In this document: positions 16,319-16,628 of the stretch, in pieces
Layout of the letters: every line of letters starts with the position of its first letter
How positions within the stretch are numbered: position 1 is the stretch's first letter
DNA from: a virus
Lineage: Duplodnaviria > Heunggongvirae > Uroviricota > Caudoviricetes
Length of the DNA: 43,003 nucleotides
IMG/VR virus record: IMGVR_UViG_641522624_000003
Strand: one strand, 5' to 3'
Translations under genes and position numbers: made by a program
The notes under the pieces: generated by a model
What the model saw: only the letters and a program-made list of their open reading frames with translations
The model's database searches: none
Told to the model about the DNA's origin: nothing

Positions 16319-16394
16319 GGCCCTTTAGCTCAGTGGTGAGAGCGAGCGACTCATAATCGCCAGGTCGCTGGTTCAAATCCAGCAAGGGCCACCA
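16319..16394 (+). tRNA. tRNA with anticodon CAU (Met or lysidine-dependent Ile2)
   Basis: 76-nt cloverleaf: acceptor GGCCCTT/AAGGGCC, D stem GCTC/GAGC, anticodon loop CTCATAA, T-loop GCTGG-TTCAAAT-CCAGC, 3' ACCA. Confidence 0.7.
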
Positions 16395-16395
16395 G

Positions 16396-16472
16396 CCGCC
16401 ACTAGCTCATCAGGAAAGAGCGTCAACCCTTTAAGTTGAGTGTGCGAGGTTCGAGTCCCCGGTGGCGGTCCA
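16396..16472 (+). tRNA. tRNA with atypical anticodon loop CCTTTAA (C at position 33); nominal anticodon UUU, Arg(UCU)-like backbone; isotype uncertain
   Basis: 77-nt cloverleaf: acceptor CCGCCAC/GTGGCGG, D stem GCTC/GAGC, anticodon stem TCAAC/GTTGA, T-loop CGAGG-TTCGAGT-CCCCG, 3' TCCA. Confidence 0.5.
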
Positions 16473-16474
16473 GT

Positions 16475-16550
16475 GCCGACTTAGCTCAGTAGGTAGAGCA
16501 ACTGACTTGTAATCAGTAGGTCACCAGTTCGATTCCGGTAGTCGGCACCA
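16475..16550 (+). tRNA. tRNA-Thr, anticodon UGU
   Basis: 76-nt cloverleaf: acceptor GCCGACT/AGTCGGC, anticodon stem ACTGA/TCAGT, loop CTTGTAA, T-loop TTCGATT, 3' ACCA. Confidence 0.7.
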
Positions 16551-16553
16551 TAT

Positions 16554-16628
16554 GCGGGCATCGTATAATGGCTATTACCTCAGCCTTCCAAGCTGATGAT
16601 GCGGGTTCGATTCCCGCTGCCCGCTCCA
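16554..16628 (+). tRNA. tRNA-Gly, anticodon UCC (phage-type)
   Basis: 75-nt cloverleaf: acceptor GCGGGCA/TGCCCGC, anticodon stem TCAGC/GCTGA, loop CTTCCAA, T-loop GCGGG-TTCGATT-CCCGC, 3' TCCA; overall resembles phage-encoded tRNA-Gly as I recall it. Confidence 0.65.

Follow-up and report, generated by a model that had tools for sequence, protein, structure and literature searches.

The 43,003-nt stretch of viral DNA analysed here (IMG/VR record IMGVR_UViG_641522624_000003, Caudoviricetes; the whole stretch is called the window below) is a lambdoid prophage that carries four tRNA genes head-to-tail on the + strand (16319–16628), between the genes for its Q antiterminator and its P21-type holin. 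The second of these, tRNA2, has the anticodon UUU in a loop in which position 33 is C rather than U. Our preferred reading, held tentatively and with less than even confidence, is that tRNA2 would be a remodelled, probably inefficient, nuclease-insensitive spare tRNA-Lys on a body derived from an arginine tRNA.

The original prediction, made from the letters alone, had placed a four-tRNA array after Q, given it a consensus-like promoter of its own and assigned three of its members to CAU (Met/Ile2), UGU (Thr) and UCC (Gly) types. We searched the window with ARAGORN, the Rfam model RF00005 (gathering score 29 bits), a consensus scan for promoters and terminators, Pfam and an inverted-repeat search. 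ARAGORN and Rfam agree on the array, Pfam places Q before it and the holin after it, the promoter scan returns a TTGCAA-17-TATTAT site just ahead of it, and the three tRNA types hold (Table 1). The spacers between successive tRNAs are 1, 2 and 3 nt. Nor is the array a chance match: of 5426 complete E. coli genomes, 505 contain its 461-bp block at ≥80% coverage, and PGAP labels the four genes there tRNA-Ile, -Lys, -Thr and -Gly.

The unusual loop of tRNA2 is borne out by the Rfam alignment and the raw sequence. The 7-nt loop CCUUUAA at 16428–16434 reads C32 C33 U34 U35 U36 A37 A38, which puts C33 at 16429 and the UUU anticodon at 16430–16432. The acceptor stem is CCGCCAC/GUGGCGG (C1-G72) followed by U8 and A9, the D arm in the Rfam alignment is GCUC-AUCAGGAAA-GAGC followed by G26, the anticodon stem is UCAAC/GUUGA and the variable loop is GUGUG. 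The T arm, CGAGG-UUCGAGU-CCCCG, is not fully paired, having an A51.C63 mismatch, and the encoded CCA follows U73, not the discriminator A73 of E. coli-type tRNA-Lys. Apart from U33, canonical features are in place, namely purine 37 (A37), U8, A14, G18G19 and a UUCRANY-type T loop (UUCGAGU). The gene lies above the gathering score, albeit with the lowest score in the array (44.4 bits, neighbours 65–74 bits), and is labelled tRNA-Lys by ARAGORN and, in E. coli prophages, by PGAP.

An alternative fold restoring U33 was considered and rejected. ARAGORN and Rfam share one register (C1-G72, U8, A14) and no other register preserves both the D and T arms, so C33 is real and no alternative fold removes it. 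The minimum-energy fold is not the cloverleaf (z = -1.5); the cloverleaf lies 2.7 kcal/mol above it, which is similar to tRNA1. It had been suggested that assignment of a standard isotype after a different fold, or an error in a single base, would explain the loop away. A standard isotype is indeed assigned, Lys, but in the same fold and with the lowest score of the array, and C33 stays. C33 is no sequencing or reading error; the C33 form also occurs in the sequenced Escherichia phages vB_EcoS-689R5 and PhiR47_1.

Elongator tRNAs almost invariably have U33, which underlies the U-turn and supports ribosome binding (PMC5041475, PMC13276492). The natural exceptions cited are the eukaryotic initiator tRNA (C33) and Candida tRNA-Ser(CAG) (G33) (PMC5041475, PMC11122139). 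Like tRNA2, these have a nucleotide other than U33 in an otherwise normal 7-nt loop, and in the Candida tRNA, as in tRNA2, loss of U33 accompanies a change of anticodon identity. Both differ from tRNA2, which is known from its sequence, in being eukaryotic and having established functions. In the literature searched we found no description of a bacterial or phage elongator tRNA with C33. In older work, U33 is said not to be strictly essential for suppression by a yeast tRNA.

By alignment, tRNA2 is an argN homologue, by descent a member of that prophage-specific lineage of Shiga-toxin and lambdoid phages but not an arginine tRNA. The array itself is a variant of the known ileZ-argN-argO kind. 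Its block is homologous to ileZ-argN-argO of Stx2 phages (83.5% identity over 272 nt) and to the tRNA block of the PPompW prophage (89% identity); one promoter is common to all three, with no sequence difference between the window, PPompW and a Stx2a phage. The original prediction had proposed comparison with the tRNA block of Stx phages and had noticed an Arg(UCU)-like backbone, and both points are substantiated: tRNA2 aligns with argN, its anticodon stem is common to lineage members with the loop CUUCUAA (Arg UCU), and it retains A20, a D-loop identity element of E. coli tRNA-Arg. The lineage backbone is present throughout, with the CCGCCAC acceptor, the UAGCUCA..GAGC D arm, the NCAAC/GUUGN anticodon stem, the T arm CGAGG-UUCGAGN-CCYCG and the encoded CCA, and the location downstream of Q beside an Ile2(CAU) tRNA matches as well. 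The body is homologous to phage Arg tRNAs and not to tRNA-Lys. Arginine anticodons have C35 with U36 or G36, and position 35 of tRNA2 is U.

The Stx2 phage block (Stx2a_F349, 933W type) lies, as in the window, downstream of Q, PR' and tR' and upstream of the late genes. There tRNA1 aligns column for column with ileZ, and argN has the acceptor, D arm and T arm (with A51.C63), U73 and CCA of tRNA2, but the loop CUUCGAA (U33, anticodon UCG) on the stem UCAGC/GCUGG where tRNA2 has CCUUUAA on UCAAC/GUUGA. The third slot of the Stx2 block is argO; the window has copies of thrU and glyT in that place and no toxin genes after them. The PPompW block of enterohaemorrhagic E. coli (EHEC) strains (Met-Lys-Arg) shares with the window the promoter, the ileZ-like tRNA and the slot-2 loop CCUUUAA, and differs in the loss of one D-stem base and a G3.U70 pair in slot 2, in argO (UCU) in slot 3 and in an insertion sequence (IS) element that comes next.

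The closest relative of the window sublineage is a sister copy (locus L229, 4006–4082) with the same D loop AUCAGGAAA and U73, and with the variable loop GAGUG that also occurs in some window-type copies. It differs in its loop CUUUUAU, which keeps U33, in a fully paired T stem and in a compensated U4-A69 pair, and 13 E. coli records have it under the PGAP label tRNA-Lys. Looking for intermediate loops with the stem kept the same, we obtained this U33 Lys form as the one family member; the other 65 loci were unrelated. The simplest history is likely to have run from a CUUCUAA Arg(UCU) loop through a Lys(UUU) loop with U33 (C35 to U) to CCUUUAA (U33 to C). In the literature searched we found nothing specific on ileZ/argN/argO and prophage tRNA blocks; one study, of satellites whose integration sites are late genes of prophages, names tRNA-Ile2 targets, not the tRNA2 gene.

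The anticodon of tRNA2 is that of host tRNA-Lys(UUU), the target of the defence nucleases PARIS AriB and PrrC. AriB cuts this tRNA at C40|A41, with the determinants U36AAUC|A41 and U16, and its second prime target is tRNA-Thr(UGU); phage T5 escapes PARIS partly through a variant tRNA-Lys (PMC12409363). PrrC cuts host tRNA-Lys 3' of U33 (PMC2610378). The Old protein of P2 removes the anticodon arm of its preferred target, thrU, at a paired CNG motif, and cells supplied with additional host thrU are protected from it little or not at all; in a library of 245 phage tRNAs most tRNA-Lys(UUU) rescued cells from AriB toxicity (PMC12445682). Where AriB needs U39, C40|A41 and U16, the sequence of tRNA2 has G39 U40 U41 and C16 A17. 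Its anticodon stem is without a CNG motif, and on the 5' side of the PrrC cut site it has a changed nucleotide, C33. As far as these positions predict, tRNA2 should be no substrate for AriB or Old. The tRNA-Lys(UUU) of T5 is likewise a phage-encoded UUU tRNA that differs from the host at positions read by AriB (39, 41, 16); its resistance to AriB has been shown experimentally, and the tRNA is required for PARIS escape, though not sufficient alone, whereas tRNA2 is judged by sequence, has an Arg-derived body and C33, and belongs to a temperate lambdoid phage.

We hypothesize that the four genes would be transcribed jointly from the stable-RNA-like promoter of the array, and also from PR' when Q is active, and that RNase P would cut the 5' end of each tRNA across spacers of just 1–3 nt. 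The UUU anticodon is the main determinant for LysRS, which would charge tRNA2. The charged tRNA would then read AAA and AAG, though less efficiently for want of the nucleotide that makes the U-turn. Its value would lie not in codon supply but in being a host-unlike spare tRNA-Lys that escapes recognition by anticodon-arm nucleases targeting host tRNA-Lys.

The companions would have the more conventional task of supplying the minor codons AUA, ACA and GGA. tRNA3 and tRNA4 are E. coli K-12 thrU and glyT base for base. AUA (8.1), ACA (14.2) and GGA (14.0 per 1000 codons) are used in the window at about twice their E. coli averages, which fits a classical codon-supply role of tRNA1, tRNA3 and tRNA4. 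Support of rare codons had been proposed for the set as a whole, and it does not extend to tRNA2: AAA (36 per 1000, close to the host average) and AAG (17 per 1000) are common and served by several host genes, making codon supply an unlikely reason for this gene. AGA and AGG together amount to 12.3 per 1000 codons in the window, and this phage has no Arg tRNA. The thrU and glyT copies stand 3 nt apart, without the tyrU that separates both genes in the host operon, and the thrU copy, being host-identical, should be as cleavable as host thrU by P2 Old and AriB. In three related viral contigs (L060 3480–3555 (-), L091 5501–5576 (-) and L121 6852–6927 (+)) the thrU copy has G35 changed to U, along with A26 to G, which gives the host tRNA-Lys loop CUUUUAA and a second UUU tRNA. 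The slot-2 tRNA beside it carries U8C, C11U and other changes, and the mutated thrU may stand in for it as a supplier of a UUU tRNA.

Several observations weigh against a spare tRNA-Lys. C33, U73 for A73 and the A51.C63 mismatch would all predict a poor one. In 54 loci of the window sublineage with the complete set of four tRNAs, constraint is weakest on tRNA2, which has a diversity per site of 0.025 against 0.003 in tRNA1, 0.011 in tRNA3 and 0.016 in tRNA4, although its flanks are 7–12 times more diverse (promoter segment 0.17, downstream spacer 0.32). E. coli holds 472 records at 95–99% identity to the window copy for which PGAP, in the rows listed, usually gives no tRNA, and the variants seen in this class show either U8C or a deletion in the D stem. 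Other sublineages combine the same body with loops of 5, 6 or 8 nt, which cannot decode, and this argues that the conserved function of the lineage needs no anticodon. U33C is not known to affect cleavage by PrrC or AriB, and yeast gamma-toxin is indifferent to it (PMC2275089). Finally, tRNA3 is identical to the host gene and thrU protects poorly against P2 Old, so nuclease resistance is not the design of the whole module.

The most serious competitor to the spare tRNA-Lys comes from the wider lineage, here called lineage X. We surveyed it by scanning IMG/VR with the T-arm and acceptor sequence, and one genome per species with the 5' half and T loop. These patterns fix part of the body exactly, which inflates conservation there; about 44 body positions are left free, and the conclusion on body conservation rests on those. 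X occurs in prophages of about 45 Enterobacterales species, in genera including Escherichia, Shigella, Salmonella, Citrobacter, Enterobacter, Buttiauxella, Scandinavium, Dryocola, Edwardsiella, Hafnia and Yokenella, and its usual module is Ile2(CAU) - X - Thr(UGU) - Gly(UCC). Among complete E. coli genomes, 39% (2131 of 5426) carry it. In the rows listed, PGAP calls the copies at least 99% identical to that of the window (278 records) tRNA-Lys, mostly passes over the 95–99% class and calls the copies at 80–90% identity (1214 records) tRNA-Arg. Copies of the window type were found in two species-representative genomes only, of E. coli and Shigella flexneri.

Across 92 distinct X sequences the acceptor, D and anticodon stems are 97–100% paired, and the T stem likewise save for one position, the third pair (51-63), which is A.C in 34, A-U in 33, G-C in 17 and G.U in 8. 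The first anticodon-stem pair is A-U in 44, U-A in 23 and G.U in 22, and the third acceptor pair varies among G-C, G.U and A-U. In a 42-sequence alignment seven pairs have changed on both sides, a value that none of 500 shuffles reached, and structures slid by 1–3 columns score far lower; a low figure for the D stem is an alignment artefact from 17 rows with an extra base at position 26. Most of the listed D-loop variants have A as the base after G18G19.

The loops behave otherwise. Among the same 92 sequences there are 54 distinct anticodon loops, of 5 nt (13), 6 nt (26), 7 nt (46) or 8 nt (7). Canonical ones read Arg (CUUCUAA, CUCCUAA, CUUCGAA). Others include the window type CCUUUAA as well as CAUUUAA, CAUAUAA, CAUUGCC, AUUUUAU, AGUUUAU, UAAAU, UUAAU, CACGAU and CAGGAU. 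Many members have lost U33 to C, A or G, and the 6-nt loops, if read as C-NNN-R-U, would possibly have U33 deleted. UUU loops have appeared on the X body in several sublineages, three of them besides that of the window (CCUUUAA, CAUUUAA, AUUUUAU, AGUUUAU, CUUUUAU). A set of 28 short-loop loci shows 30–40% variation in the loop columns against an invariant body, which is better conserved there than the tRNAs next to it. Short-loop members (L176–L225 generally) are 73–74 nt long with loops of 5–6 nt, and their bodies are nearly identical across genera. One of them (L180 1474–1547) has no Rfam tRNA match at E ≤ 0.1 beside three neighbour tRNAs that score 58–74 bits, and the copy in a Yersinia phage is annotated 'tRNA-Pseudo'. 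X also stands alone in several short-loop loci, and an Enterobacter genome has a stand-alone copy (L183 6218–6340 (-)) with the loop AUUUUAU and no other tRNA within 500 nt; by our reading it is flanked by a promoter-like site, TTGTCA-17-TAGAAT, and a terminator-like hairpin downstream.

Divergence separates body from loop in the same way. For all pairs of X loci with flanks less than 10% diverged, the body differs by 0.007–0.022 and the loop by 0.003–0.020; at 10–30% flank divergence the values are 0.065–0.11 and 0.23–0.43. Body divergence is about 0.4 of that of the flanks, while loop divergence tracks or exceeds them. In the low-divergence pairs the loop does not outpace its flanks, which indicates an approximately neutral loop and a constrained body. 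Three other explanations of this pattern were tried and rejected. Targeted hypermutation or diversifying selection of the loop would show as an excess that the pairs with flanks under 10% lack; in closely related pairs the loops differ by single substitutions or in the length of a U run. A role as mere scaffold for RNase P processing of neighbouring tRNAs does not explain selection on the body, since X occurs alone with promoter- and terminator-like sequences of its own; the D arm and anticodon stem are, moreover, conserved beyond what RNase P needs. A DNA-level attachment or recombination site conflicts with the frequent G.U pairs, which place the constraint on the RNA, and with compensatory changes that are specific to the RNA strand.

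It is therefore possible, though in our estimate doubtful, that tRNA2 is non-decoding, a stable CCA-ended RNA of tRNA shape kept for a role that depends on its body. A candidate role, to be taken with the same reserve, would be to bind or titrate some protein with affinity for tRNA bodies, for instance a toxin, a tRNA enzyme or a defence nuclease, and C33 could then be an early step in a loop decay taken further in other sublineages. A decoy, as offered in the original prediction, is a further possible reading. The near-complete pairing of stems beneath so many loops of 5–8 nt argues for this, as do the significant two-sided covariation, the G.U pairs, the short-loop loci with their invariant bodies, and the contrast between a constrained body and a loop that diverges with the flanks or beyond. 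X standing alone, in L183 and several short-loop loci, means that it is not kept merely for processing its neighbours, and the short-loop member invisible to the Rfam tRNA model and the Yersinia phage copy called 'tRNA-Pseudo' fit a tRNA shape without a decoding task. The window copy itself points the other way: it keeps a 7-nt loop, C32, a sense anticodon and U36-A37-A38, is one base from a normal Lys loop, and has as its closest sister a gene (L229) with a canonical Lys loop. No protein gene could be linked to the RNA and no binding partner is known, and the exact-match patterns inflate conservation, though not at the free positions.

The spare tRNA-Lys and the non-decoding RNA are not mutually exclusive. 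Extending the latter, slot 2 might represent an undescribed class of phage RNA, derived from an Arg tRNA, CCA-ended, selected for its body and with a loop that is dispensable or disabled, a generalisation we regard as rather unlikely on present evidence. Such a class could act through its body, as an uncleavable mimic or sponge for nucleases or toxins or as the partner of another tRNA-binding factor, and the C33 'tRNA-Lys' of the window would be a young member of it. The pattern of a constrained body with a free loop across X appears to be undescribed in the literature searched.

Plain decay is less likely than either reading. Under it, tRNA2 would be a functionless pseudogene carried between the useful tRNAs of a successful prophage, which we judge distinctly improbable, and the suggestion in the original prediction of a degenerate tRNA is accordingly not well supported: the gene is far less variable than its flanks, by the factor of 7–12 given above, and the stems of its lineage covary. 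The case for decay lies in the lowest covariance-model score in the array, in C33, A51.C63 and U73, in the highest diversity of the four tRNAs, and in common variants with a D-stem deletion (PPompW, EHEC) or with U8C and C11U that PGAP leaves unannotated in the rows listed; the window type, found in two species-representative genomes only, is hence young. Some changes in the 54 loci, namely U8C, G18A and the D-stem deletion of PPompW, would be expected to harm. Yet most stem changes there are C to U opposite G, which keeps pairing, so that substitutions are biased to those that preserve it, and older sublineages hold the body across many genera as the loop drifts, the opposite of uniform decay. 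The slot has also been retained although a precise deletion would cost nothing. C33 is unchanged and loop positions 33–38 are invariant in the 54 loci, a sample too shallow for this to mean much.

Among the common E. coli variants, one has lost a D-stem base (L001 1657–1732, PPompW, EHEC) and another has C4U, U8C and C11U (L226 601–677); in the rows listed, PGAP leaves both without an annotation. The glyT copy of L226 has mutations and no annotation either, so decay in that lineage affects the prophage generally rather than tRNA2 in particular.

A tRNA of switched identity, charged by ArgRS through A20 and placing Arg at Lys codons, with C33 limiting the damage as G33 does in Candida tRNA-Ser(CAG), is very improbable: A20 is kept in most D-loop variants listed and the sole natural elongator cited without U33 is that identity-switched Candida tRNA (PMC5041475), but C35, the main anticodon determinant for ArgRS, is lost in favour of the LysRS determinant UUU, and proteome-wide substitution of Lys by Arg would harm. 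The recoding or suppressor tRNA once considered for this gene likewise finds no support, UUU being a sense anticodon read by LysRS; the phage genes give no hint of recoding and their codon usage is ordinary.

The setting of the array is that of a lambdoid late region (Table 1). The promoter that overlaps the end of Q agrees in position with the lambdoid PR' layout and is followed by a tR'-like terminator; the leader between them is analogous to the lambda 6S transcript. Part of this leader gives weak, sub-threshold Rfam matches to isrK and isrJ, two small RNAs (sRNAs) of Salmonella prophages. Between the array promoter and tRNA1 lies a G+C-rich stretch, CCTGCGCCC, which we read as a probable discriminator of the stable-RNA promoter type. 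Downstream of the tRNAs, the spacer that precedes the next terminator contains three perfect inverted repeats, is partly conserved in distant loci by alignment and could be a processing element or small RNA. Lysozyme, Rz, HNH endonuclease and terminase genes follow the holin gene (Pfam).

Elsewhere in the window, a tRNA-Ser(CGA) adjoins a tyrosine integrase gene at the left end, a junction that is probably the prophage attachment site. A full-length DicF sRNA and a sok/hok-type toxin-antitoxin locus, both typical of Qin- and Rac-like lambdoid prophages, are present as well. Two genes upstream of the tRNA module lies a gene for a DUF968 protein with an HNH-like C-terminal region (YdfU family), and this family is annotated upstream of the module also in the PPompW prophage and in Yersinia phage YeP1.

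Table 1 Features of the window around the tRNA array and elsewhere in the prophage.
Feature	Position	Strand	Evidence
tRNA-Ser(CGA)	892–981		
Tyrosine integrase gene	1034–2059	-	
DicF sRNA, full length	5407–5458	-	76.7 bits
sok/hok-type toxin-antitoxin locus	12865–13189	+	sok 113 bits; 70-aa open reading frame with Hok-like peptide
DUF968 protein (YdfU family)	14017–15072		
Q antiterminator gene	15429–16124	+	Pfam Phage_antiter_Q, E=8.6e-92
PR'-like late promoter, TTGCAA-17-TATATT, overlapping the end of Q	16108–16136	+	Consensus scan
Leader, PR'-like promoter to tR'-like terminator	16140–16217		
Leader segment with sub-threshold sRNA matches	16140–16213		Rfam isrK 22.7 bits (threshold 50), isrJ 24.5 bits (threshold 37)
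tR'-like intrinsic terminator, hairpin and T run	16182–16217 (16188–16211)	+	Consensus scan; inverted repeat I2
Array promoter-like site, TTGCAA-17-TATTAT	16281–16309	+	Consensus scan; ends 10 nt before tRNA1
tRNA1, CAU, Ile2 (ileZ/ileX) type	16319–16394	+	ARAGORN; Rfam 72.5 bits; PGAP tRNA-Ile
tRNA2 (lineage X), UUU, argN lineage	16396–16472	+	ARAGORN; Rfam 44.4 bits
tRNA3, Thr(UGU)	16475–16550	+	ARAGORN; Rfam 73.8 bits; identity to thrU
tRNA4, Gly(UCC)	16554–16628	+	ARAGORN; Rfam 64.9 bits; identity to glyT
Spacer between tRNA-Gly and the pre-holin terminator	16635–16812	+	
Perfect inverted repeat, 11 bp	16635–16645/16670–16680	+	Repeat search
Perfect inverted repeat, 14 bp	16688–16701/16746–16759	+	Repeat search
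Perfect inverted repeat, 9 bp	16758–16766/16804–16812	+	Repeat search
Terminator-like hairpin and T run before the holin gene	16835–16858	+	Consensus scan
P21-type class II holin, first late (lysis) gene	16920–17135	+	Pfam Phage_holin_2_1, E=1.4e-35

Phage tRNAs are increasingly seen as replacements for host tRNAs destroyed by defence nucleases and less as supplements to codon supply, with evidence that comes almost entirely from large virulent phages. The module described here is a common one of temperate phages, and it carries an exact thrU copy together with a putatively Lys-reading tRNA on a foreign body, without the features recognised by PARIS. Should the C33 tRNA prove to be charged and to resist cleavage, it would show how prophages patch tRNA-directed immunity and that an elongator tRNA can work without U33. 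If the lineage is instead a non-decoding mimic, a widespread structured RNA would stand where the late operon begins in Shiga-toxin phages and their relatives. In both cases, current annotation splits one lineage among tRNA-Lys, tRNA-Arg, 'pseudo' and nothing at all.

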